NCBI GenBank assembly: GCA_963700285.1
Contig: CAVOXA010000014.1
Coordinates: 160,001-224,000, forward strand
Reading direction: 5' to 3'
Source: an uncultured Chloroflexia bacterium
GTDB taxonomy: Bacteria > Chloroflexota > Anaerolineae > JAAYZQ01
DNA: 64,000 nt
Made by a program: the position numbers and the translations under genes. Of this stretch, positions 2,817 to 36,098 are shown one piece after another (position 1 is the first letter of the stretch; the number at the start of each line of letters is the position of its first letter). The notes beneath the pieces are model-generated. The model searched no databases. It was not told the origin of the DNA and worked only from the letters and a program-made list of their open reading frames with translations.

Positions 2817-5800
2817 TCAATGCGGCTCGATGACCACATCCTGCCAGAACCAATTCCTGAGGGAGGAGGCGGGGCTCTTTTTCACCCAGGGCTTGACCAG
2901 CAGATGCCGGCGCATATAGATCAGGGGAAGTATCGCAGCCTGCTCAAGCGCGATCTTGTCTGCCTGCTGATACAGCACCATCCTATCCCGCTGATCTGTG
3001 AGACGCCTGGCCTTCTCCACCAGATCGAGAAACCCCTCGTGCTGCCAGCTCCCTCGGGTCCAGCGGCGCATGCCCACCCGCAGGGGATTGTCCGGGTCGG
3101 CATAGTCGGTGACCCACGCCCCGAGCCACATGTGGGGAAGCTCTTCGTCCAGCATACTGAGATAATTTGCCCAGTCCAGCGATGAGGCCAGGGTGACAGG
3201 AACCTCGAGGCTCTCCTGCCACATGATGAGGGGAACCTCGCCAAAAGGCTCCCTGCCTCGCCACACCGGCAGTTCAATCTCCGGGAAGCCTCGCCCACCC
3301 GGAAAGCCAGCCTCGGCCAGGAGAGCGCGCGCGCGGTTGAGGTCATAAGGCAGGCCGATATTCGGAGAATGACCAGGCATCGTCGGTGGTATTACTCCCC
3401 CGGTGGCCGGAAAATAGTGTCCCCGGAAGGCGACATCCGCCAGCGTCTCCCTGTCCGTAGCCAGGGCAAAGGCCTGTCGCACACGCACGTCGTCAAATGG
3501 GGGGCGGCTTGCATCGAAAGCGATGTGAAAGTGCCCCGGCACGGGGACCGATACGTATTCATCTGCAAGTCGCTGTCTCAGGCCCTCCACTTCTGGCTCC
3601 GGAAACCCCAAGGTCTCCAGGATGTCGAGATCGCCAGCCTCGTACATCTCCAGCTTGCGAGGCCATGCCTCGAGCGGAAGCACCCAAACCTCCACACGAT
3701 CTACGTTGCCTGAACAGAGACCATGATATCGACGATTGCGCGCCAGGACCAGCCGTTCTCCCGGCTGCCAATTCTCCAGCATAAAGGGGCCATTCGTCAC
3801 GATGTTTCCTGCTGCTGCCCAGGCATCGCCGTAGGCCTCCACGATGTGCCGGGGTACCGGCAAGAGGAATGGCAGCAACTGAAGGAAATGGCCGGTTGGC
3901 CGCTCCAGTTCAACAACAAGGGTTGTGGCATCCAGCGCCTGGATCGCCACTTGGTCCGGATCTGTTTCCTGACCCTGGTGGTAGGCCCGGGCTCCCCGGA
4001 TATCGTGCAGCCCCTGTGCAGCGGCCGATCCAGTCGCTGGATCCAGGATGCGCTTCCAGCTGTATTCAAAATCGTGCGCCGTCACCTGGACGCCATCGCT
4101 CCACCACACATCGTCCCGCAGGTGAAAGCGATACTTGCGGCCTCCTCCAGGACCTCCCAGCTCAGGGCCATATCGGGAACGATATCCATCTCCGGGGTCA
4201 GGATCGCCAGCCCGCTGAATAGATGCTGGATCACTTGGGCTGAGTCATCGTCGTTGACCGCAGTCGGATCCAGAGTGAGAAGGACCCCGATGGATACTCT
4301 GAGGGCATGGGGGGCAGGTCGCAACAGGATAGAAGGCTGTGGCCTTCCTGCCTTTTGCCACATGGCGAAACCGTCGTCGTAGGCCTGGCGGGCCTGGCGA
4401 AAGTCAAAGGCATTGTGGTGGGTCAGGCCCAACTTCATCAGCGTCCGGGCTGCCTGCTCATGGTCCCCACGCTCCTTGAGAAAAGCCAGCGCCCGCTCGT
4501 AGGCGCGGATCGCCTCCGGATGGGCGTACAGACCCCGCGCCCTGTCCCCTGCCTGGAGCAGATACCCCACAGCTTCGCCGCTGCGCCCGGCCAGCGCCAG
4601 GTGGTCGGCGATCAGACCCGTGTACTCGGCAACCCGCTCCCCACCCTGCTCCAGCAGCCAGTCGGCGACCAGGCCATGGTACACCCGCCGCTCCCGTCTC
4701 AATACGCTCTCGTAGCTGATCTCCCGCAGCATGTTGTGCTTAAAGATGTACTCCTGGGCATCCGCAAAGGTGGACGTCTCCCGCTGGAAGACCAGCTCTC
4801 TGCCCCGAAGAGCCGACAACTTTTCCTCCACCTCCGCGTCCGTTATCCCCTCACCGGCCGACTGGTTTATGCGGGCCACGGCCTGATCCCAGAACAACCG
4901 CCCCACCACCGACGCCTGCTGCAGCACCGTCCGCTCAACCGCCGGCAGGAGGTCCAACCGGGCCTGCAACACACCGGTCAGGGTGGGCGGCACCCGGACT
5001 TCCGCCAAACGCGCAGTCTCCAGCCGCCACTCCGTCCCACTCTTGACGATCACACCATCCTCAACGAGCATCTTGATCAGCTCTTCGATGAAGAAAGGAT
5101 TGCCCTCCGCCCCGGAGACCACGAGGTCGAGCAGCGCTTTTGGTGGGTGGTCCATCCTTCGCAGGATCTGGGCTACCAAGCGCCGGCTATCCCACTTGGA
5201 CAGGGGATCCAAGTCAAGGCGGCTGTGGAAGGGCTGGCCCTCACCCCAGCGAGGCCGCCGCTCAAAGAGCGACGGGCGCGCCGCACCGACGGTCATCACC
5301 GGCTGGCCTTCCAGGGCCAGGACCAGGTGGTTCACCGCATCCAACGAGCTTTCGTCCGCCCAGTGCAGATCCTCCAGCAGAACCAACACCGGACCCTGGG
5401 CAGCCATGCCCCGGAAATAATCAGCCAGGTTCGCCAGCCCCCGGTTGCGGACCTCCTGGGCATCGCTCAGCACGCCGTCCGGCTGTGGGCTTTCCCCAAG
5501 CTCAAACCCGAGCAGGTAGCCAATGAGATGAGCCGCGCTTTGACTCTCACTGGAGCCGCCCAGGGCCGCTGCCACGCCTGCGTCGAGCTTCTCTCGTACC
5601 TGTGCCGGCGGGTCACTGTCCAGGATCTCGAAGCGAAAGGCCAGCAGGTCACGGATCAGCCGGTAGGGCAGGTTCTGCATCTCCTGGCTGGCGCGCCCCT
5701 TGAAATAGTAAAACTGCTGGGGCAGCAACTCGGACCACAAGTCGAACTCATAGAGCAGCCGCGACTTGCCGACACCGGCCTCGCCGCTGACGGTCACCAT

Positions 5801-6761
5801 CTGCAGCTCACCGTCCTCCATCGCCGTGTAAAAGGCATCCTGCAGGCGCTTCAACTCCGCTTCCCGGCCCACCATGCGCGTCTCTATACCTTCCACGCCC
5901 CGTTCCGGCTTGCGAAAAGCCCTCGCTTTGGCCCGCTCCACCAGGTAGGTCTGGACTGGCACCGACCGGCCTTTGACGTGTAACGGTTCCTGGGGCTGGA
6001 CATCAAAGACGCCGCGCACATGACGGTAGGTATCGTGGCTGATCAGGATGCCGCCCGACGGCGCGTTCTGCTCCATGCGGCGCCGCCAGGTTGACCGCGT
6101 CACCCATGGCCGTATACTCGACCCTGAGATCGGTGCCCACTTCGCCGACGACCACCAGCCCGGTGTTGATACCCACCCGCACGGCAAAGCCCCGGATCCC
6201 GCGCTCCCGCTCCAACTTGATGCCGTACTCCTGAGCCCCTGCGATGATGTCCAGTGCAGCCTTGCAGGCGCGCTCCGGGTCATCCTCGTGGGCGATGGGC
6301 GCTCCGAAAAAGGCCAGGATGGCGTCACCCATCAGCCGAGCAACAGTTCCCTCCTGGCGATAGATCGGCCCCATCAGGACATCAAAGGCGCCATCCATGA
6401 TCTCGAGCCATTCCTCCGGGTCCAGCTCCTCGGCCAAAGCCGTCGAACTCTTGATATCGGAAAACAGAATCGTGACCATGCGGCGTTCGCGGCTCAGGCG
6501 ACCGCGGGTGGCCTGCAGCCGGTCGGCGTACTCTCTCGGTACCAGGCGGTGCAGCCGCTCTGCAACGGCATCGGAAGAGCCACTGGCTTGGACGTCCACC
6601 TCCGCCGCTATCTCGCCGCCGCACACGAAGCAAAAGCGTGCATCCGGATCAGGCGGCAGATCTGTTCCACACTGGGGACATACCAGGGACAGCTTGGACC
6701 CACACCTCATGCAGAAACTAGCGCCGTCAGGGTTCCATTTTTCGCATTGCGAACAGCGCAT
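2817..6761 (-). CDS. Double Zn-ribbon / class III nucleotidyl cyclase / STAND (AAA_16) ATPase / TPR / family-5 solute-binding domain fusion, copy 1 (two apparent frameshifts)
   Basis: CxxC pairs at the N-terminus. Cyclase motifs FSDIKSST, RLMGD, GINTG, VNLAA. Walker A GEAGVGKS, Walker B LEDLHWAD, GNPFF. Short TPR region, then TLDP...LFSGL, VTAHDF, TNGPF and PPFDDVRVRQAFA (OppA-like). Joined from ORFs 6003..6761, 4082..6328 and 2817..4109; the intact paralogue at 11462 supports the join. Confidence 0.85.
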
Positions 6762-6874
6762 CGTACCCCCTCAGCAATGGCAATGCCAGACCGGTCCAAC
6801 CCATTTTACATCAGATCCCGAAATAGGCCAAGGTCCAGTTCCGAAGGCTTGAGCTTGGCGTTCGGCGAATGCCA

Positions 6875-7927
6875 TCACGTCTCATGCAGCCGTGGATCAA
6901 GGGCATCCCGCAGCCCATCGCCAACAAAGTTGAAGGCCAGCGTCAGCAGGGTCAGCGCCAGGCCGGGCACTAGGACCAGGTGCGGGTTGGAGCGAAGGCC
7001 GGGATAACCCTCCTGGATCATGGCCCCCCAGCTTGGCGTCGGCGGGTTCACGCCCAGCCCGATGAAGCTCAGCGCCGCCTCGGCAAAGATAAAGCCGGGG
7101 ATGGCCAAGGTGGCGACCACCAGTAGGGGACCGATGGTGCTGGGCAGCAGGTGCCGAAACAGGATGCGCATCCTGCCCGCGCCGATGGCCCGGGCGGCCA
7201 GGACGAATTCCCGCTCCTTGTGGCTAAGCACCTGTCCCCGGGCCAGACGGGCGATGCCCAACCAGCTCAGCGCCCCCAGCGCGATGAACAAGAAGAGCAG
7301 CCCGCCCAGGGCATTGTTGGCCCCTATGAGAAAGCCGGCAGGACCGGTCGCCCCCTGGCGCGAGAGGGCCTTGAAATAGACCTGGAGCAGGATGATCAAC
7401 GTCAGCCCGGGGATGGCGTACAGAAAATCGACCACGCGCATCAGGGCCTCGTCCGTCCGCCCGCCGCTGTAGCCCGAAACAGCGCCATAGATGACCCCGA
7501 CGGCCAGGCTCACGGCCGTTGCCACAAAGGCCACGGCCAGGGAGACGCGGGCGCCGTAGACGGTCCGGCTCCAGAGATCGCGGCCCAGCCCGTCGGAGCC
7601 AGCAAGGAAGACTGTGCACGCTGGCTGCAAAGGGGTCCCGGCCCAGTGGCATTTCACCAGATGGTCCTCGTCGACACCGTAGCGGGTGAAGGGTTTGGCT
7701 CGACCGTTGGCGGTGTTCAGCGCGGCATAGTCATAAGGCGTGATGCAGGGAGCGATGATGGCCAGGAACACGACCAGAGCAATGAAAAGCGCTCCGGCCA
7801 CGGCCACCCTGTTGCGGCGAAACTGGCGCCAGGCATCTGTTACCGGACCCCGGCCCGTGCGCAGTTGATCCTGAACCCGTACTGCTGCTGGCCCCTCGTC
7901 TGCCATACTCACCAACGCTTCAGTCAT
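6875..7927 (-). CDS. oppC: Peptide ABC transporter permease OppC/DppC family
   Basis: AWRQFRRNRVAVAG, GSDGLGRD, GARVSL, EFVLAARAIGA (EAA-like motif), EAALSFIGLG..PTPSWG, GDGLRDALDPR. Confidence 0.92.
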   Translation of the reverse strand: MTEALVSMADEGPAAVRVQDQLRTGRGPVTDAWRQFRRNRVAVAGALFIALVVFLAIIAPCITPYDYAALNTANGRAKPFTRYGVDEDHLVKCHWAGTPLQPACTVFLAGSDGLGRDLWSRTVYGARVSLAVAFVATAVSLAVGVIYGAVSGYSGGRTDEALMRVVDFLYAIPGLTLIILLQVYFKALSRQGATGPAGFLIGANNALGGLLFLFIALGALSWLGIARLARGQVLSHKEREFVLAARAIGAGRMRILFRHLLPSTIGPLLVVATLAIPGFIFAEAALSFIGLGVNPPTPSWGAMIQEGYPGLRSNPHLVLVPGLALTLLTLAFNFVGDGLRDALDPRLHET

Positions 7928-8163
7928 GGGTGCGCCCTGGTCATTGCGCTCTGGGTCTAGGACTGGCAGGATCACTGCCACCCTCAACCTAGTCTTTGAA
8001 GAGGACACATGGCAATGCTATCACTGATTGGGTCCCGGGAGTCCCCAGCTTGCTGGGGTTCTTGCCCTCCGGGGACAGTCGCCCAGAGCAGGGCTTTGAC
8101 CTTGGCACAGGCGGACGCCCGGAACCACCACCGAGGGTCATCTATCAGACCAACAGTATCCCA

Positions 8164-9136
8164 TCAGTCGTACCGGATCCGTGGATCCAGCCAGGCGTAC
8201 ATGATGTCGACCATCAAGTTCCCGGCAACCAGGAATAGCGCATAGATCAGGGTGATGCTGGTCAGCAGAAAGTACTCGCGACTGCCGACGCTCTCCACGA
8301 ACTTTCGGCCCAGGCCGTCCAGGGCAAAGATCTGCTCGACGATGAAAGTCCCGGTGAGGACTCCGGCCAGGAGCGGGCCCAGGATGGTGGCCAAGGGGAT
8401 CATGGCGTTCTTGAGCACGTGGCGCAGTAGGACCCATTCCTCGCGCACGCCCTTGGCCCGGGCCGTCCGGGTATAGTCCTCGGACAGTACCTCCAGCATG
8501 CTGGCCCGCAGCAGGCGGGCGATACCGGCCGACAGCCCCAGACCCAGGGCGAGCACGGGCAGCACGGCATGCCGCCAGAAATCGGCCGTCGGCCGCGGCA
8601 GGAAACCCAGGATGTAGGGTGGCTCGGCCCCCCAGAAGGCGATGGGGAACCAGTCGAGGCGCAGGCCCAGAATCAGGATCAGCGCTGGACCCAGGACGAC
8701 GACGGGCATCGACGCGCCCAGCACGGCGAAAAAGGTGGCCGAATGGTCGACGAATGTGTTTCGCCGCCAGGCCGCGATCAAGCCGGCCGGCATGCCGATG
8801 GCGAAACCCACGAGCAGGGCCAAAACCCCGAGTTGGATGGAGACCGGCAGCGTGCGGGCCACCACGTCGTTCACCGTCTGGCCCGGCATGTGCAGCATGG
8901 GCCCCAGATCACCACGCAGCAGGTTGCCCATGTAGGCGCAGGAATTGCTCTGGCCAGAGGCCGGTCCAGGCCGTAGCGCTTCTCCATGACTAGACGGATG
9001 GATCGGGCATGTCCTTCTGGCCCATGGTGGAGAAGGGACCGCCGGGCAGGGCCTGGATCAGGGCAAAGGTCGCCGCGGCGATGGCAAAAAGTACCGGAAC
9101 CGACAGGAGCAACCGCCGGACAATGTGCCGGGTCAC
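8164..9136 (-). CDS. oppB: Peptide ABC transporter permease OppB/DppB family (frameshifted near N-terminus)
   Basis: GTG start overlaps the oppA stop. IVRRLLLSVPVL..LPGGPF, GDLG, EDYTRTARAKG, HVLKNAMIP, VEQIF, LDPRIRY. Confidence 0.9.
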
Positions 9137-11319
9137 CGGCGGGCTGCCTGCTTTGCTTCCCAGTCGATGGTCCAGTTGTGGAAGTGCATGCTGAAGGGAT
9201 CCTCTGGCCCCTGATCGAGCCAAGAGTGCACGGCCTCGATCGACATGTCCACGGTGAGGGGGATGAAGGGCAGATCGCCCTCTGGGCCGAAAAAGCCCTC
9301 TTCGATCTGGCGGTAGAGCGCGATCCGGCGGTCCGGGTCTGGCTCTTCCCGCGCCTGAACGATCAGATCGTCGAGCGCCCCACATTCCCGGCCACGCGCC
9401 GGCATTGTGCCACTCTTGCACCACAGCACATCCCCAACCCAGTTGTTCTCGTCAGGATAGTCGGCGGCCCAGCCCATCGTCCACAAGTGGGGCCGCGTTT
9501 CCGCTGGCCCCCGAGCGGCGTCCATCCGCTCGCGGAAGGACAGTTGCTCAACCTGGATCATTTCCGGGCTGCAGCCCAGGTGTTCCACCCATTGGGCCTG
9601 CGCGTATTCACCGTTGGGCAGCGCATCGGGGCCAGGACCGATCATCAGCGTCACCTGGGGAAAGCCGGCGCAGTCCGGGTATCCAGCCTGAGCCAGTTGC
9701 TCTCGAGCGAACTCGGGATCGAAGCCGACCCCACCTCGTAGATGGGCGGGGCGCCAAAGATGCCCGGAGGGGCAAAGTGCACCATCGGCAGGCCTGACCC
9801 TGCATCACCTCCTCTGCGAGGGTCTGGCGGTCAAAGGCCGCGTTAAAGGCCCGACGCACATGCACATTGTCGAAGGGCGGCTTGTCGCGGGCGAAGCCAA
9901 GATAGAGCACCGCCGGATCGGGCACCGGATCCCCTTCGTCCGGGAACTGCTCCAGGTGCGCCTGCAGCTCCAGATCCGGGATCCCGAGACATCCACCTCA
10001 TTGTTGAGCCACAGGGCATAGCCGGTGACTCAGGTCGGGCACCACTCTGACCACGGTGCGCTCGATGTTGCCGCTACCGCGCAGGTCCTGGGGCATCAGC
10101 GGGTTGCGCCACAGGCTGCTGCGAACCCCACGCTGCCACTCGTGCAGCACGAAGCGGCCGTTGGTGACAATGCTTGCCCGGCTCTATCCAGGCTTCGCCG
10201 TGCTCCTCGACGGCCCACTGAGGCGTCGCCGCCAGCGTCCACATGGGCGTCATCGACAGAAAGTAGCTGGCCGGAAACGCCAGCTCGATGACCAGCGTGT
10301 CGTCCGCCGGCCCGGACCCCGATGGCCTCGACCAGTTCCGGCGGGATCGCAGCCGGATCTTCCGCGTACAGGACCTCTTCGCAGCCTTTAATCAGGGGCG
10401 CGACCACAGCGCTATAGTAGGAACCAACGTCGGGATCGCAGGCGCGCTTGATAGCGTATGCGAAATCGTGGGCCGTAACGGTGCGGGGCTTGCCTGCCTC
10501 GTCCAGCACTTGCCTCGTCTCGCCCGTGTCCGGGTCGTGGCGGACCCAGGGGATGTCGGTGCGCAGCTTGAAGGTGTAGACCAGGCCGTCGTCGCTGACC
10601 TGCCAGCTCTCTGCTACCTCGGGTACGAGCTCGAGCGTCTCTGGATCCCGGTCGGTGAGGTTCATGAACAGGTTTTCGATTTCGTCGAACGAGACCACGT
10701 CGCTGGCCAGTTGAGGGACATGGGCCGGGACGTCGGCATACAGCACGGCCTCGCAGCCCTTGATCAGCGGCGCTACCACGCTGCTGTAGTAACTGCCCAG
10801 GTTGGGATCGCAAGCGCGCTTGATGGCGTAGGCGAAATCGTGGGCCGTCACAAAGCGGGGGTTGCCCGCCTCGTCCAGCACCTGCTCCGTGTCGCCCGTG
10901 TCCGGGTCGTGGCGCACCCAGGGGATGTCAGGCCGCAGCTCGAAGGTGTAGACCAGGCCGTCGTCGCTGACCTGCCAGCTCGTAGCGGCCTCGGGCACGA
11001 ATTCGAGAGACTCCGGGTCGCGGCTCGTCAAGCTGACAAACAGGTTCTCGACAAAGTCGATCGAGCCCGCGTCATCGGCCAATTGCGGATCAAGGGTGGA
11101 GATCTCTGTGGTACGATAGCCATCAAAGGTCACAGGCTCCTGCGACGCCGACGGCGATGGCACGGCCGTCAGAGCGGGCGACGGAGCCTGCTCTCCGGTA
11201 GATGAAAGTACTGCAGTCTCCCCCAGGACCGCCGGCTCCGGGGTCGAAGCGCAGCCGGCCAGTACCATTGCCGCCAAGATCAAGGGCAACCGCAAACTTG
11301 GGTATCTCCTCTTTATCAT
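9133..11319 (-). CDS. oppA: Lipoprotein peptide-binding protein OppA family with internal duplication (frameshifted in C-terminal half)
   Basis: Lipobox LAGC. TLDPQL..ENLF, ATSWQVSDDGLVYTF, VTAHDFAYA, PPFDNVHVRRAF, WAADYPD. Pieces lie in ORFs 10096..11319, 9608..9925 and 9133..9654. Confidence 0.85.
10357..11049 (-). repeat. Diverged in-frame tandem duplication within oppA, 372-bp period
   Basis: ENLFVSLTSRDPESLEFVPEAATSWQVSDDGLVYTF...KGCEAVLYAD recurs as ENLFMNLTDRDPETLELVPEVAESWQVSDDGLVYTF...KGCEEVLYAED. Confidence 0.93.
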
Positions 11320-11461
11320 CTCTTCCTCTTTCCAGCTCAGATTCCTACTCGAAAGTCTCAGAGAAGCGCCGAGACCGGCCAGTGTTCAGTGACGAATGGC
11401 CAAGGGATAGTGGGCCATCCCATGTCCATCCTCCCCCATCCACCGCTCCTGCTTCCTCCCC

Positions 11462-14400
11462 TCAGTGCGGCTCGATGACCATGTCTTTCCAGAAGAACGC
11501 GCCCGACGCCGACCTGGGGCTGCTCCGGACCCATGGCTTGACCAGCATATGCACCCTCGGGTAGGAGAGGGGTAGGAGGGGCACCTGCTCGACCAGGACA
11601 AGTTCTGCTTGAGCGTACAGCGCCATCCGCTCTGCCAGGTCCATGGCACGCCGTGCCCGCTCGATGAGGGCAAAGTACTGCTCTTCGCGCCAGGCCGTGG
11701 CGCGCTGCACCGCCACGCGGAGGTAAGTATCCGGATCCGGGTAGTCAGGCCCCCAGGCCACCAGAGTCAGGTGAGGTGGAGCGTTGCGGACCCGGTTGAT
11801 GAACTCGGCCCACGGTAGGACCTGGTAGCCGATCTCTACCCCCAAGATCTCATGCCACTGCGCCTGCAGGTGCGGGGCCTGGGCCCGGAACCCAAGAGGT
11901 GCCAGCAACTCCACCTCAGGGAAACCCCTGCCGCCAGAATATCCGGCCTCTGCCAGGAGTTGCCGGCCACGCTCTGGGACGTACGGCAGGGCGATACCCG
12001 CCGAGTGTCCCGGCATGCCAGGCGGCACAAGCCCGCCGGTAGCCGGCTGGTAGTAGCCGGCGGAGGTGACGTCGACCAGTCCCTCCCGGTCCAGTGCATA
12101 GGCAAAGGCCAGCCGCACCCGGAGGTCGTCAAAGGGCGTGCGTGTCAGATCAAAGGCCAGGTAGCGGGTTAGCACCCCGGGTTGCGTTATGTAGTCCCCT
12201 GCCAACCTCCGCCGTACCCGATCCGCCTCTTTCGGGTCGTCAACATCCAGCCCGATGATATCCAGAAGATCGGCCTCGTACATCTCGAGAATAGAACGCC
12301 AATCCCCTAGGAGACCCAGCGGCAGCTCCACTCGTTGGACGTTGCCGCCGAACCGCCCGTGGTACCGCAGGTTGCGCACAAGTACCAAGGAGTTGCCCCG
12401 CTGCCATGAATCCAGTCTAAGGGGCCCATTGGTGAGGATGTTCTCGGGCTCCGACCAGGCTGAGCCCAGTCGCTCAACGAGGTGGCGAGGAACCGGATAC
12501 AGGGCGCTGTAGCTCAGCAGTGGCAGAAGGTATCCCGTCGGCGCCTCAAGCTCCACGGCGAGTGTGACGTCGTCAATGGCCATCACACCCAGGCCATCCG
12601 ACTTGGAGACGTGTCTATTGTGGTATGCCTTGGCCCCCTTTATGTCGTATAGCAGGCTGGCATTTCGGGATTCACTCGCAGGAGCCAGCACGCGCTTCCA
12701 GGCGTAGACAAAGTCATGGGCTGTCACCGGCACCCCGTCACTCCAATAGGCATCAGCCCGCAGGCGAAAAACAACCCTGCGCCCATCCCGGGAGACCTCC
12801 CAGCTTGCAGCCACGTCAGGCACAACGCCACCGTCATAGGTGAAATCCACCAGCCCACTGAATAGTTGTTCAACGAGATCGAGGGAACCCTCGTCAGTCG
12901 CGAATGCTGGGTCCAGGGTCAGCGGGTCAACGCCTGGCTCCCTGAGGGCATGGGGTGCAGGCGGCAGCGAAGCGGCAGTGGCGGCCTCTTCCGCACGGCG
13001 CCAGAAGGCAAAGCCCTCGTCATAGGCCAGGCGGGCCTGCTGGAAGTCAAAGGCCGCATCGTGCGTCAGCCCCAACCGCATCAATGTGCGCGCCGCTTGC
13101 TCATCCTCTCCTGCCTCTTTCAGGGACACCAGCGCCCGCTGGTAATAGTCCGTCGCCTCCTGGAGGGCATAGGCAAGCCTCGCCCGATCCCCTGCCCGCA
13201 ACAGGTACTCTGTCGCCTTCTCGACGTCACCGGCTCGCTCCCAGTGGTAGGCCAGCAAGCCCACCTGCTCCTCCACCCGCACGTGGAACAGTCGCTCTAG
13301 CGCCTCGGCCACCTGCCGGTGGAAGACACGCCGGTCTTTTATCAATAGTCCGTTGTAAGCTGCCTCCTGGGTCAGCTGGTGCTTAAAGATGTACTCCAGA
13401 TCCGGCAGCCGCGCTCTCTCACGTATCATCTCTTCCCGCTGCAGCGTCTGCAGCTCAGCGTGCAAATCGCGTTCCTCATGGGCGAGCTGCGTCAGCACCC
13501 GGCACAGAAAGAGCCGCCCGATGACCGCCGCCATCTGCAACACCCGCTTCGTCTCCTCCTCCAGCCGGTCGATGCGGGCCGCCAACACCCCCTGCAAGGT
13601 GTCTGGGATTGCGATCTCGCTCACCTCCCGCGCCGCCAGCCAGCGACCTGTCCCTACCTCTTGCTCGATGGCTCCCTCATCGATCAAGGAGCGCAGTACC
13701 TCCTCCAGGAAGAAGGGGTTGCCCTCGGCCCGGTCCAGGATTCTCTCCTTAAGCTCAGGGGGCAGGCATTCCATCCACAGCAGGTTTCCCACCAACCGCC
13801 CACTCTCAGCCTCGGACAGGGGATCAAGCCACAGATCGGTGTGCCGCTGTCCGTGGTCCCGGGCAGCCGTTTGCCTCAACTGCCAGGACTTGTGCGACCG
13901 CTCCGGGCGGAATACGCAGACGATCAACAGCGCGTGCCCTTCGGTGACGGCCAGCAGCTTTTCCAGCAACTCTATCGACGTCGGGTCCGCCCAATGCAGG
14001 TCCTCCACGACAAGCACCAGGGACCTTTCCCTGGCCGCAGATGCAACCAGCGTCTCCACAGCGCGGAACGTGGCAGACTTGAGCTCCCGGCCATCCAAGT
14101 GGCTCAGCCTGGCCTCCGACTCTTTTTCCAGTGGTAGGGACATCAGCGCGGCCAGGAAAGGGTAGACCTCATCAGACTGCTCAGGGTACAGGGCCTGGAC
14201 GCGTCCTCGCAGGGCATCCCCGACATCCACAGGACCGTCCCCCACGCGCACTCCCAGCAGCCCTCGCAGCAGATCGAGCCAGACAAGATAGGCCACGGAG
14301 CCACCGTAGGACAGACAGCGGCCCTCGACCCATTGGACCCAGCCTTGTGAAGGCTCCTTCGCAAGGCTTTGCTTGCGCAGCTCCGCCACCAGCCGTGACT

Positions 14401-15405
14401 TGCCGATCCCGGCTTCGCCTACGAGGGTCGCGATGCCGCCCGCCCCGGTCTGCAGGCGGTCCAGCGCCTCGGTCAGGGCAGCCAACTCTTCTACCCTACC
14501 CACCAGCGGAGAATCCAGCCCGGCGATGCCACGCAGCTTGCCGGGGGCATCCTCTGGCGCCAGCACCCGGTAGACGTCGACTCGCTCCATCCGGCCCTTG
14601 ACCTCAATTGGCCCTAGGGCCTCCGTCTCAAATAGAGGCGCGACCAGTTTGTGGGTGGCCTCACTGATCAGCACCGTGCCTGGCTCCGCCGCCGACTCTA
14701 TCCGCGCCGCCAGGTTCACCGCGTCGCCCATGGCCGTGTACTCGACCCGCAGGTCCGAGCCCACCTCGCCCACGACGACCAAGCCGGTGTTGATCCCCAC
14801 CCGCACGTTGAACCCCTGGACCCCTCGCTCTCGCGCCAGACGCGTTGCATAGTCTTGAGCACCCGCGATTATGTCCAGGGCAGCGCGACAGGCCCGCTCC
14901 GCATCGTCCTCGTGGGCAATCGGCGCGCCAAAGAAGGCCAGGATGGCGTCGCCCATCAGCCGGGCCAGCGTGCCCTCGTAACGGGTTACGGGCTCGATGA
15001 GGACGTCAAAGGCCCCGTCCATGATCTCCATCACGTCTTCCGGATCGAGTTCTTCGGCCATGGCCGTCGAACCCTTGACGTCACAGAAGAGGATGGTTAC
15101 CGTGCGCCGCTCACGGCCCACCTGGCCCCGCGAAGCCAGCAACCGCTCGGCGTACTCTTTGGGCACCAAGCCGTCTCAGGAGGCGGCCGCCGTTGGCCTC
15201 AGGCGCAGGCCGCGGTTCGCAGCCAGGGCTGCGCCAGTACCTAGGGCGGATGGGCAGCACGGTTCGCGCCGCAGTCAAGACAAAACCTGGCCTGGAGGGG
15301 CAGCTCAGTGCCGCACTGGGCGCAGATCAGACCAGCCTGGACCCGCACTTCAGGCAGAACTTGGCGCGTTCGGGATTTTCGGTGGTCGCAGCTCGCACAC
15401 TGCAT
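11462..15405 (-). CDS. Double Zn-ribbon / class III nucleotidyl cyclase / STAND ATPase / TPR / family-5 solute-binding domain fusion, copy 2
   Basis: The uninterrupted 1235-aa ORF runs from FCDVKGST, RLMGD, VNLAAR through GEAGIGKS, VEDLHWAD, GNPFF and TPRs to LTLDPAF..LFSGL, TNGPL, PFDDLRVRLAFA. The Zn-ribbon N-terminus (MQCASC..FCLKCG..CAQCG..FCLDCG) lies at 15170-15405 with frameshifts. Confidence 0.9.
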
Positions 15406-15558
15406 CTCAACCCTCCGATCTGCGTAGCGGTTTGTGCGAGATTATCGGTACAAAGACATCTCGCCTTTCGCGCCAGTCTTCGCCACGATAAGCGTGTGAC
15501 GGTAGCGACAGAGGCCAGGTGTCCCTGGTTCTGGCCCAGAGCGAAGAACCCCTACTCG

Positions 15559-15587
15559 ATTATAGAACAGATGAACAGATTTGTCAA
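15559..15587 (-). promoter_or_regulatory. Consensus sigma70 promoter heading the cyclase-Opp cluster
   Basis: Minus strand reads TTGACA-17 bp-TATAAT about 150 bp upstream of the copy-2 start. Confidence 0.8.
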
Positions 15588-32423: not shown

Positions 32424-32499
32424 GGGGGCGTGGTGTAGTGGTTAACATGCCGGCCTGTCAAGCCGGAGATCGCGGGTTCAAATCCCGTCGCTCCCGCCA
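32424..32499 (+). tRNA. trnD: tRNA-Asp (GTC)
   Basis: Acceptor stem GGGGGCG/CGCTCCC, anticodon arm CCGGC-CTGTCAA-GCCGG, T-loop TTCAAAT, encoded CCA. Confidence 0.97.
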
Positions 32500-33967: not shown

Positions 33968-34009
33968 CTGGGCTGCAAGAGATGTTGGTTAGGCCAATCG
34001 GGAGATAGG

Positions 34010-34603
34010 ATGAGATTCCTTTTTATTGCTGCCACTATCGTGGTACTTTTGCTCACCGCATGTGATGGCCCCGAAAAGCCCACTGCGGGAATTGGTCCTG
34101 AAGATACCCCAATTGAGACACCTGACATTGCCGAATCATCTCCCTCTGCTGCGCCACTGACTCGGAAAAGTCATGGAAACACCCTCATTGAGTCACCAGA
34201 GTATACTGGTGTCGTTTTCTCTGAGAATCGAGCTTCGGAGTTTAGCTTCTTATTTGACAGAGCTTCCACTGAATTCTGGGAGCCATCAATCAACGACGTC
34301 TCAAGAGCTGAGAAGTGTATCAGACAGCATCTTGTTTCTGTGCAGCAGGACCCGAATGATTACCAGAAAGAGCATGCTGCATTCATCTTGGAAAACCTTG
34401 GCGAATACCGGCGCCAATACGTAGGGATTGTTGTCGATGGTGAGAAGCGCATCTGGTGCAACGCGTTCTTCTTTGATGATTCATTCCCAGATTGGGAGCG
34501 TGATCCAGTTTACGTACTTGACGGGGGCAATCAATTCTGGCAGATCGAATATGATCTGCTCAAAGATAAATGTGTAAACTTCTACGTTCATGGAGAGGCA
34601 TAA
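34010..34603 (+). CDS. Hypothetical lipoprotein, AT-rich, cassette-like
   Basis: Lipobox LTAC. YRRQYVG..I..N..F..V.DGG..F motif. Visibly more AT-rich than its neighbours. Confidence 0.8.
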   Translation: MRFLFIAATIVVLLLTACDGPEKPTAGIGPEDTPIETPDIAESSPSAAPLTRKSHGNTLIESPEYTGVVFSENRASEFSFLFDRASTEFWEPSINDVSRAEKCIRQHLVSVQQDPNDYQKEHAAFILENLGEYRRQYVGIVVDGEKRIWCNAFFFDDSFPDWERDPVYVLDGGNQFWQIEYDLLKDKCVNFYVHGEA

Positions 34604-34609
34604 GTCTAT

Positions 34610-34676
34610 GTCCGACAAGCCGTCCCGGCGGACTCAGACCCTTGCGGGGTTACGCCGCTGAGCTAGGCATCAGCGC
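34610..34676 (+). mobile_element. Degenerate integron attC-like site
   Basis: GTCCGAC-AAGCCGTCCCGGCGGAC...CGCCGCTGAGCTAGGC-ATCAGCG resembles an RYYYAAC...GTTRRRY attC with both cores mutated. A GTTAGGC core sits at 33988, just 5' of the gene. Confidence 0.5.
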
Positions 34677-34806
34677 GGGAACAAGGCGAGATCGATCCCT
34701 GAATGGCAAAGAGAACAAACACCCTCCGTCGCCTGGCTGTCCTATACGAGTCCGATCCAGTGAGGAGACCTTGGCTGTGGCGGCAAAGCCGCAAAAGCCT
34801 CTATGT

Positions 34807-35761
34807 CTATTGTAGTTGGGTCTTTATGAAATCCAACGTCTGCTCAATGATCTCGGCTGATCTCGGATGTGATCTCATGGTTTCTTCAAACTCATGCCGT
34901 CCTTCTTCGAACTCGACCAGGGTTATGTCCATATCACTGGCCAACCCGACATCAAGAAAGTGATCGATGGAGTCGTTCACATAGCGCAGCATGGGCTTGC
35001 GACCGCCGCGAACGATCAGCAGCGGCAGATCCGTACGCATCTGCGCGACATCCTCTAGTTCGGCTGCATAGCAGCCGGACCGCGAACACATATCGTTGAT
35101 CCCATCGCGGAATCTGTTGTCAGGGGTCAGCATCTGACCATAGTAGAATACGGCGAATTTGAGAAAGCCCCTGCCCTCCTGCATGGCGAAGGACATGGCC
35201 GTGGGGCTATTGTCCGCACAGGACCATAGGCCGATACGATTCGGGTCCATGTGATGGAGGTGCCCATTCTCCTGGATCCAGGCCACCACGGCCTCCAGGT
35301 CATCATACTGCTCGGTCTGATAAGTGATCGCGATGAGCCCGGACGCGGCTACCAGCCTGCCCCAGGAGACATATTGGCTCATCTCCTTGAGCGGCTCGGA
35401 AATGTAGGGTGCCCAGTCAGGGTAGCCCATGACAAAGATCACGACCGGCAGGGTGTCGCGCCCCTTTGGACCCGGCGGGTTATAGACATCCAGAGGCAAG
35501 AGCGAGCCATTTGCCGAGGGGTAATTCAGGTGCGTCACGACGATCTCATCCATCCCTGGGAGACTGAAGGCCAGCGAGTCAACGGGCAGATCACTGTGCG
35601 ATGCCGGTGTGGGTGGTGGGTAGGGTACTGGTTGGCGCGGGGGTATTCGTTGCCGGAAAGCTTGTGGGTGTGGGTGTAGGTTGGGAAGTACCACATGCCA
35701 CGAAAAGCAGGGTGACCAGTATACAACCAATCAACTTCGGTAGCAGTTCCTTGCGATCCAT
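34807..35761 (-). CDS. Lipoprotein alpha/beta-hydrolase-fold protein (frameshift in Pro/Thr linker)
   Basis: MDRKELLPKLIGCILVTLLFVAC lipobox, then LDVYNP, PVVIFV, DPNRIGLWSC, PLLIVRG, EEGRHEFE. Confidence 0.78.
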
Positions 35762-35879
35762 CGTACCCTCCTTAAAGTCGTTGTTCGCTACAGAAACAGA
35801 CAGCAGTCACACGAGCAGCATGACACAAAGTATCGAGTATCCCGGCTGTTGAGGCGTTGAGAGGGCGGGAGACCCGCCC

Positions 35880-36098
35880 TCAGTACGACCTGTCTTGGGC
35901 AGAATCTACGTCGGAGGGCTCGAGAGTCTGTCGTCTCAAGAATAGAAACAGATCGTCCAGGCTGGCAAAGCCTTGGCTCTCGCCAGTGCGTGGGCTCTCC
36001 AGGGATGCCCTCCAGCCGGTTGTGCCCTCGCCCTTCACCTGCCACAAGCGCAGCAGGTAGGCGACGTACCTATGCTGCGGTTCAGTCACAATAACCAC
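35880..36098 (-). CDS. Small conserved hypothetical protein (YLLRLW...WRASLE...GFASL type)
   Basis: 72-aa ORF with YLLRLWQ, WRASLESPRTGE and GFASLDDLFLFL, divergent from the SARP-STAND regulator. Confidence 0.75.
   Translation of the reverse strand: MVIVTEPQHRYVAYLLRLWQVKGEGTTGWRASLESPRTGESQGFASLDDLFLFLRRQTLEPSDVDSAQDRSY

Follow-up and report, generated by a model that had tools for sequence, protein, structure and literature searches.

Predicted cyclase-STAND proteins with an OppA-type solute-binding domain in uncultured Chloroflexota: candidate cytoplasmic receptors built on a core with exchangeable outputs

Two predicted cyclase-STAND-SBP fusions

The window analysed here, a 64,000-nucleotide stretch of DNA from an uncultured Chloroflexia bacterium, carries on its minus strand a cluster of five co-oriented genes (2817..15587) in the order fusion 2, oppA, oppB, oppC and fusion 1, as an initial annotation of the sequence had described. 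The two fusions are the subject of this study; each joins a predicted class III nucleotide cyclase, a STAND (signal-transducing ATPase that has numerous domains) protein and a complete family-5 solute-binding protein (SBP) of the OppA type. Fusion 2 begins with an ATG at 15405, and its N-terminal segment (15170..15405, minus strand, as for all features of the cluster) holds two Zn-ribbon motifs and about three frame breaks. This is followed by a predicted class III cyclase in which both metal-binding Asp residues and the Thr, Asn and Arg are kept (14555..15115), a STAND core of nucleotide-binding, helical and winged-helix domains (NBD-HD-WHD) with Walker A, Walker B, a GNP motif and the WHD His (13292..14524), a six-helix segment resembling tetratricopeptide repeats (TPRs), which we read as the STAND arm (12980..13342, helices 396-516 of the structure model described below), and a complete family-5 SBP with no signal peptide that keeps the equivalents of OppA Trp416 and Asp419 (11462..12949). 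The stop-free frame 15169-11462 (1235 codons) matches PF00211 (residues 22-195), PF13191 (221-417) and PF00496 (782-1152). The description of this copy as a single open reading frame (ORF) holds for the cyclase, STAND and SBP parts but not for the Zn ribbons, which lie across the breaks.

Fusion 1 (2817..6761) has the same order of Zn ribbons (~6755-6612), cyclase (6491-5930, with a break near 6080), STAND (5890-4655), arm (4636-4349) and SBP (4306-2820, with a break near 4140), and matches PF12773, PF00211, PF13191, weakly TPR_12, and PF00496. The proposal that PF12773, PF00211, PF13191 and PF00496 would be found in one chain was borne out for the last three in the frame of fusion 2, whereas the chain of fusion 1 is broken at ~6080 and ~4140; many full-length homologues carry PF12773 or PF13240 at the N-terminus. 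The SBPs of the two fusions are 50% identical, and fusion 1 shares 84% DNA identity with its orthologue in a genome of the same genus, G261.

The frame breaks in both fusion copies, together with those in oppA and oppB, speak for the possibility that the fusions arose as chimeras during assembly or are pseudogenes in decay, but this is extremely improbable in view of hundreds of intact full-length homologues in independent short-read assemblies and of the same-genus genome, which has its breaks at different places. The assembly is rich in indels, and several fusion paralogues are broken as well. Contigs of the DNA read runs cover small shares of the region, none of them spanning the whole cluster, and those of run X2, from a related strain, have indels of one base at 6079/6080 and at a number of the oppA and oppB breaks. 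Because of these indels, and because G261 is open at both break sites of fusion 1, the breaks are likely to be assembly errors. The fusion of a whole family-5 SBP to a cyclase-STAND protein, as first annotated, is real, being present in the frame of fusion 2 and in its homologues: among the best 120 of 5647 matches, the window's own included, 118 of the 119 others, which are 53-74% identical, have all three of cyclase, AAA_16 and SBP_bac_5.

The fused SBP is a C-terminal domain and has neither the signal peptide or lipoprotein signal of a transport OppA nor a transmembrane-like window around it. In a hydropathy scan no 19-residue window reached 2.0 in any of the 120 homologues (120/120), and none reached 2.2 in any of 150 more distant proteins (150/150), in agreement with the lack of transmembrane segments and export signals that had been noted at the outset.

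Conserved motifs and a model of the STAND-arm-SBP part

Motif conservation was counted in 119 aligned homologues, P0002 being left out. The Walker A Lys, the Walker B Glu-Asp, the GNP motif and the WHD His of the STAND core are each invariant (119/119), and the core has the composition of a STAND ATPase, namely an NBD with Walker A and B, a helical domain with GxP and a winged-helix domain. In the predicted cyclase, which has the two metal Asp and the transition-state Asn and Arg of the class III type, the metal Asp residues are kept in 112 (the other 7 being gaps) and 118 of the 119, the Thr/Ser and the Asn in all, and the Arg in 116. The WHD His is an ADP latch in AfsR and plant NLRs (10.64898/2026.09.02.748808), and we infer that the His of the fusions is its equivalent.

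An AlphaFold2 model of the STAND-arm-SBP part, made from a 67-row alignment, had a pLDDT of 89.3 and a pTM of 0.86. The N-terminal half of the model aligns to PH0952 (6mfv; Z 22.3, rmsd 5.0, 341 residues) and to MalT (8bob; Z 21.8, rmsd 4.9, 364 residues), and the alignment to both extends into the six-helix segment. In PH0952 the arm is described as made up of three helical, TPR-like hairpins, with a distinct TPR sensor after it (PMC6468293), and the six helices that the model places between the WHD and the SBP match this three-hairpin arm. The few TPRs of the initial annotation are therefore most likely the STAND arm, and it is most likely the whole repeat sensor after the arm whose place the SBP takes; the arm assignment and the compact packing are predictions of the model. 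The substitution of an SBP for a TPR sensor had been part of the initial annotation and agrees with a relative, 69% identical over residues 1-694, that runs on into a TPR array instead of the SBP. STAND sensors consist of repeated motifs "in most cases" (PMC6468293), and in the fusions SBP_bac_5 stands directly after the arm in place of a repeat-type sensor (TPR, LRR or WD40).

Family spread and exchangeable outputs

Among 300 other genomes of the class, with four candidates scored in each, a TPR-SBP query gave matches with E <=1e-90 in at least 47. A GTDB pattern scan returned 207 relatives, 77 of the 80 kept being Chloroflexota, mostly Anaerolineae, which makes it likely that the organism of the window also belongs there, and Atlas clusters with the same three domains, few of whose members have a known phylum, are commonest in Actinomycetota. 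NCBIfam has no model that spans the full-length protein above its cut-off, and a literature search, with most subscription journals outside its coverage, returned no description of a STAND-SBP5 fusion. SBPs in signalling are presented in a review as extracytosolic partners of membrane receptors (PMC8050422), and the main text of PMC8195603 makes no mention of SBP, solute or OppA. One plasmid match with 82% query coverage (H1) was rejected as a fusion, as it consists of two separate genes.

After duplicate removal, 146 matches gave 130 unique fusion loci, the window copies not included. Their N-terminal outputs are SARP in 56, cyclase in 45 (two of them reassigned by inspection and then confirmed) and kinase in 7, and 22 have none or are cut. 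Among 150 representatives there were 48 SARP, 21 cyclase, 13 kinase, 6 SARP-kinase and 2 SARP-cyclase proteins, the rest being partial or having no detected output. The genome of the window itself encodes five STAND-SBP fusions, four with a cyclase and one with a SARP. On the SBP tree described below the SARP and cyclase labels change 11 times each, of which at least 7 and at least 5, respectively, are forced by starred branches. The conserved unit is the STAND-arm-SBP core, to which exchangeable outputs are joined, most often a SARP transcription activator, a feature that the initial annotation had missed.

The genes that follow the fusions differ with the output. A gene for a cyclic nucleotide (cNMP)-binding protein lies within 3 kb downstream on the same strand in 9 of 32 cyclase loci, but in 0 of 38 SARP and 0 of 3 kinase loci (9/32 against 0/41, Fisher p 3e-4, a value overstated by kinship). 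These neighbours are of four architectures (CRP, cNMP-SpoIIE, cNMP-HD_5 and stand-alone cNMP proteins), and the label for such a neighbour changes 7 times among the 30 cyclase rows of the tree.

Several variants of the architecture were seen. Some fusions have 2-4 tandem SBP domains (P0121, P0002, L091:625-4638), while the search with the kinase version gave no two-SBP protein of 1870-1890 residues among its best 120. Tandem two-cyclase N-termini, like those of soluble adenylyl cyclase (sAC), and CHAT-cyclase N-termini occur on the STAND-SBP core (L073, P0200, P0269, P0134), and L089:6233-9406 and L182:6666-9926 are STAND-arm-SBP proteins without an N-terminal output domain. L114:271-3114 joins a Ser/Thr kinase, a hydrophobic segment and an OppA-type domain that groups with free OppAs; it is apparently a membrane receptor version. 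The second G261 fusion (L039:5963-9632) looks mosaic, its cyclase-STAND part being nearer to fusion 1 (75% DNA identity) and its arm-SBP part nearer to fusion 2 (68%), which suggests that sensors may be swapped between paralogues.

Ligand-site features and origin of the fused SBP

The SBP in the model aligns to DppE, OppA and PrgZ with Z of 38-40, and the closest solved SBPs by sequence and structure are OppA, MppA and DppE. The equivalent of OppA Trp416 is kept in 111 and that of Asp419 in 99 of the 119 aligned homologues, and by pattern the Asp is found in 89 of 120 proteins of a wider set. We take these two to be the peptide-anchoring positions of OppA, with the Asp binding the amine.

In a tree of 104 SBP rows (LG+G4), all 63 of the 63 fused SBPs fall on one side of a branch with an SH-aLRT (approximate likelihood-ratio test) support of 99. 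A clade of free OppAs, which includes the OppA of the window on a long branch, is their sister (SH-aLRT 95). The window OppA shares 28-29% identity with the fused SBPs. When 44 of the 104 rows were put to an approximately unbiased (AU) test, a grouping of this OppA and its G261 orthologue with the two fusions of the window was rejected (p-AU 1.6e-6). The identity and the AU test rule out the adjacent OppA as donor of the fused SBPs.

Proposed mechanism and alternative readings

In light of these data, we consider the fusions to be probably cytoplasmic one-component receptors, likely for short peptides, that would make a cyclic nucleotide upon ligand binding, where the ligand class, the direction of regulation, the oligomerisation and the product are our inference. 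A short peptide or peptide-like metabolite, which could be imported by any one of the many Opp systems in the genome or arise from proteolysis, would close the OppA fold in the cytoplasm, and closure of the SBP would release the STAND arm. The nucleotide-binding oligomerisation domain (NOD) would then exchange ADP for ATP and oligomerise. Class III cyclase domains work as dimers, and oligomerisation would bring them together to produce a cNMP, probably cAMP, that acts on CRP-type and other cNMP-binding proteins. We propose arm release by analogy with MalT, in which inducer binding draws the arm from the NOD before nucleotide exchange (PMC4381067). We also lean, by a little, towards a broader view in which these proteins form a bacterial NLR-like family of peptide receptors, with a domesticated OppA as Venus-flytrap sensor and a core that has been combined with transcription activators, with Ser/Thr kinases and with cyclases.

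A number of observations weigh against the proposal of a peptide receptor with cAMP output. We assume that adenine is selected in class III adenylyl cyclases by a Lys plus an Asp/Thr pair, and because the purine-selecting site, where CyaB has the Lys, is Arg in 76, Lys in 28 and Gln in 13 of the 119 homologues, with Arg in both window copies, the cyclase product may not be cAMP. The position of OppA Arg413, which presumably binds the carboxylate of the peptide, is not kept and is mostly hydrophobic in the 119, and the Asp is absent from about a quarter of the fused SBPs. The link to cNMP-binding genes supports the cyclase rather than the sensing, an independent-pairs test of whether it goes beyond kinship had 2 pairs only and was underpowered, and neither fusion of the window adjoins such a gene, the CRP block lying ~16 kb beyond fusion 1. 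The tree comes from a quick search with rows picked by similarity to fusion 2, and the genomes seen are uncultured assemblies, bar one record. In addition, SBP_bac_5 proteins are reported to have no clear ligand preference, peptides making up about half of the known ligands (PMC10443332).

This diversity of family-5 ligands (PMC10443332) also favours a reading in which the SBP senses a non-peptide solute, such as an amino-acid derivative, an opine-like compound, a metal chelate or a sugar, or in which the ligand inhibits. The positions lining the pocket near the Trp/Asp motif vary widely, Arg413 is lost, and the paralogous SBPs of one genome are only ~50% identical, all of which would fit such a solute. 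We nevertheless consider it rather unlikely, since the best matches in sequence and structure are all peptide binders and the Asp, taken to bind the amine, is kept in most members. That some members read murein peptides, convergent with the logic of NOD1 and NOD2, is a speculative idea with a small chance of being right; we raise it because the proteins that tie for best structural match include MppA and DppE.

The expansion to five paralogues in one genome, the repeated change of output, the tandem SBP arrays and the CHAT-cyclase version would also suit an immune or conflict receptor of the Avs/NLR type, in which the SBP fold recognises a peptide or protein that is foreign or arises from damage, or an SBP that is a ligand-free autoinhibitory lid. 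This we regard as unlikely: PADLOC (2023) matched only the cyclase domain, to PycC models, leaving the STAND and SBP parts unmatched, the genes that recur beside the fusions have signalling, secreted and housekeeping products and are not defence genes, and the outputs are regulatory.

Relation to the bracketed oppABC

Between the fusions lie oppA (9133..11319), an ordinary lipoprotein gene with a lipobox, frameshifted and with an internal duplication of 373 bp, the permease gene oppB (8164..9136), with a frameshift near its 5' end, and the permease gene oppC (6875..8008; PF00528, PF12911). The promoter consensus annotated ahead of the cluster is present, as a predicted sigma-70-like TTGACA-17-TATAAT site (15559..15587, minus strand) that matches at 12/12 positions and lies ~150 nt 5' of the ATG of fusion 2. 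Promoter-like sites of any quality number 5 against a shuffle mean of 2.5, the 12/12 score being unique to the site at 15587-15559; a pattern search upstream of the fusion 1 orthologue in G261 gave no such site. Because the genes are co-oriented behind one perfect consensus, with intergenic gaps of 142 and 114 bp, co-transcription of the cluster in this strain is plausible.

This layout, and the membership of the window OppA in the clade of free OppAs that forms the sister group of all fused SBPs, are what favours the circuit originally proposed, in which the fusions would be dedicated partners of the ATPase-less OppABC and would sense its imports, as in Opp/RRNPP quorum sensing but with a cNMP output. 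The wider comparison makes this very improbable. Among the 130 other fusion loci, oppB or oppC was found at one, on the opposite strand and 5 kb off, and the count is likewise 1 of 44 for loci flanked by 5 kb or more on each side. The fetched flank amounted to 1.05 Mb, with many contigs short; the density of oppC in the window's own genome would predict ~4 loci where 1 was observed, and at control loci of other families the profiles used do pick up opp genes. In G261 the oppABC orthologue sits on a separate contig, where the 20 kb fetched contain no fusion, and the fusion 1 orthologue stands directly after a nitroreductase gene and before CRP. Three other fusions in the window's genome have no adjoining opp genes. 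Linkage to oppABC is thus not recurrent, the outcome that the initial annotation had itself named as refuting its circuit, and the phylogeny that it had called for sets the fused SBPs apart as one clade, with the neighbouring OppA rejected as their sister.

Nor is the ATPase-less state special. It is correct that the cluster has no oppD or oppF, but this is the usual condition in this genome, as oppDF is absent from most oppC loci, and 22 of the 29 oppC-like frames are without a PF08352 match within 10 kb. The presence of 29 oppC-like loci against eight oppDF loci implies that the Opp systems of this genome share ATPases. The analogy to RRNPP systems also failed to hold: in a survey of the 400 bp downstream on the same strand by a crude signal rule, short ORFs with a signal peptide followed only 3 of 100 fusions and were mutually unrelated, so no peptide-pheromone gene recurs. 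The bracketed oppABC is a local arrangement, and the circuit is not supported, being largely refuted as a conserved system.

Within oppA, a 373-bp tandem duplication (10352-11096; 78.6% identity between the copies) repeats the N-terminal part of OppA and is absent from the G261 orthologue; it could be two oppA genes joined by deletion, or a mis-assembly.

Comparison with known systems

The closest likeness in the core is to MalT of E. coli and PH0952 of Pyrococcus horikoshii, with which the fusions share the NBD-HD-WHD unit and the three-hairpin arm, whereas their sensor is a two-lobed OppA fold and not a repeat array, and their output is an N-terminal cyclase. Induction by a small molecule acts through arm and sensor in MalT (PMC4381067). 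AfsR of Streptomyces, a SARP-NOD-TPR protein, resembles the commonest version of the family, SARP-STAND, which includes a paralogue in the window's genome, and the WHD His is invariant in the family; unlike the fusions, AfsR ends in TPRs (10.64898/2026.09.02.748808).

The TOMM kinase/cyclase model TIGR03903 matches residues 16-695 with 290 bits, below its cut-off of 706. We take Rv0386 of M. tuberculosis to have the cyclase-STAND-TPR architecture. In mammalian sAC the cyclases are followed by a predicted STAND domain (PMC12802110), and the tandem-cyclase versions of the fusion family are similar to it. None of these cyclase-STAND-TPR proteins (TIGR03903, sAC, Rv0386) has an SBP, unlike the fusions.

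With OppA, MppA and DppE the fused SBP has the whole fold in common (Z 38-40, rmsd 2.0-2.3), but it differs from them by the lack of a signal peptide or lipobox, of Arg413 and of a linked permease, and is 25-28% identical. SgrR is a cytoplasmic HTH-SBP_bac_5 regulator that uses a family-5 SBP as its sensor and, unlike the fusions, has no STAND switch. RRNPP receptors bind peptides with their TPRs and are encoded beside pheromone genes; intracellular peptide sensing is the logic that we propose to be common to Opp/RRNPP quorum sensing and the fusions, although neither pheromone ORFs nor opp linkage recur at the fusion loci. The class III cyclase domain of the fusions matches models of PycC from Pycsar (best 5.9e-25), but PycC has no STAND or SBP part, and no effector operon recurs at the fusion loci.

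To our knowledge, the characterised STAND proteins sense through repeat arrays and few small-molecule inducers have been described. A two-lobed, well-understood sensor makes the ligand of a STAND protein findable, and cAMP would be a direct readout of arm release, so that a direct test of how ligand binding is coupled to NOD opening becomes feasible. If the proposal is true, it would add a peptide-sensing layer to the uncultured Chloroflexota of sediments, put right the entries that now carry the label 'ABC transporter substrate-binding protein' and provide a modular intracellular peptide biosensor.

Neighbouring genes and other features

In G261 the nitroreductase gene is followed in turn by the fusion 1 orthologue and by the genes for CRP, an HD protein, a cNMP-binding membrane protein, the second fusion and cNMP-SpoIIE. 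At four loci, a protein of ~140 residues without a Pfam match is encoded between a cyclase fusion and a cNMP-binding gene (L097:5261-5674, L145:10126-10632, L146:5862-6341, L175:12085-12540). Large secreted proteins with beta-helix, CBM96 or PPC domains are often encoded 3' of SARP fusions on the same strand (L045, L046, L049, L056, L058, L061, L063, L065, L082, L083, L086, L087); by a crude rule, a secreted protein follows 7 of 45 SARP and 1 of 36 cyclase loci, and it is possible that the SARP fusions control a regulon of secreted enzymes or adhesins.

An Rfam scan gave no RNA family within 2817..15587 and one tRNA elsewhere in the window. This tRNA gene (32424-32496) adjoins a drop in GC content to 0.54 at 34001-36000, a possible integration site.

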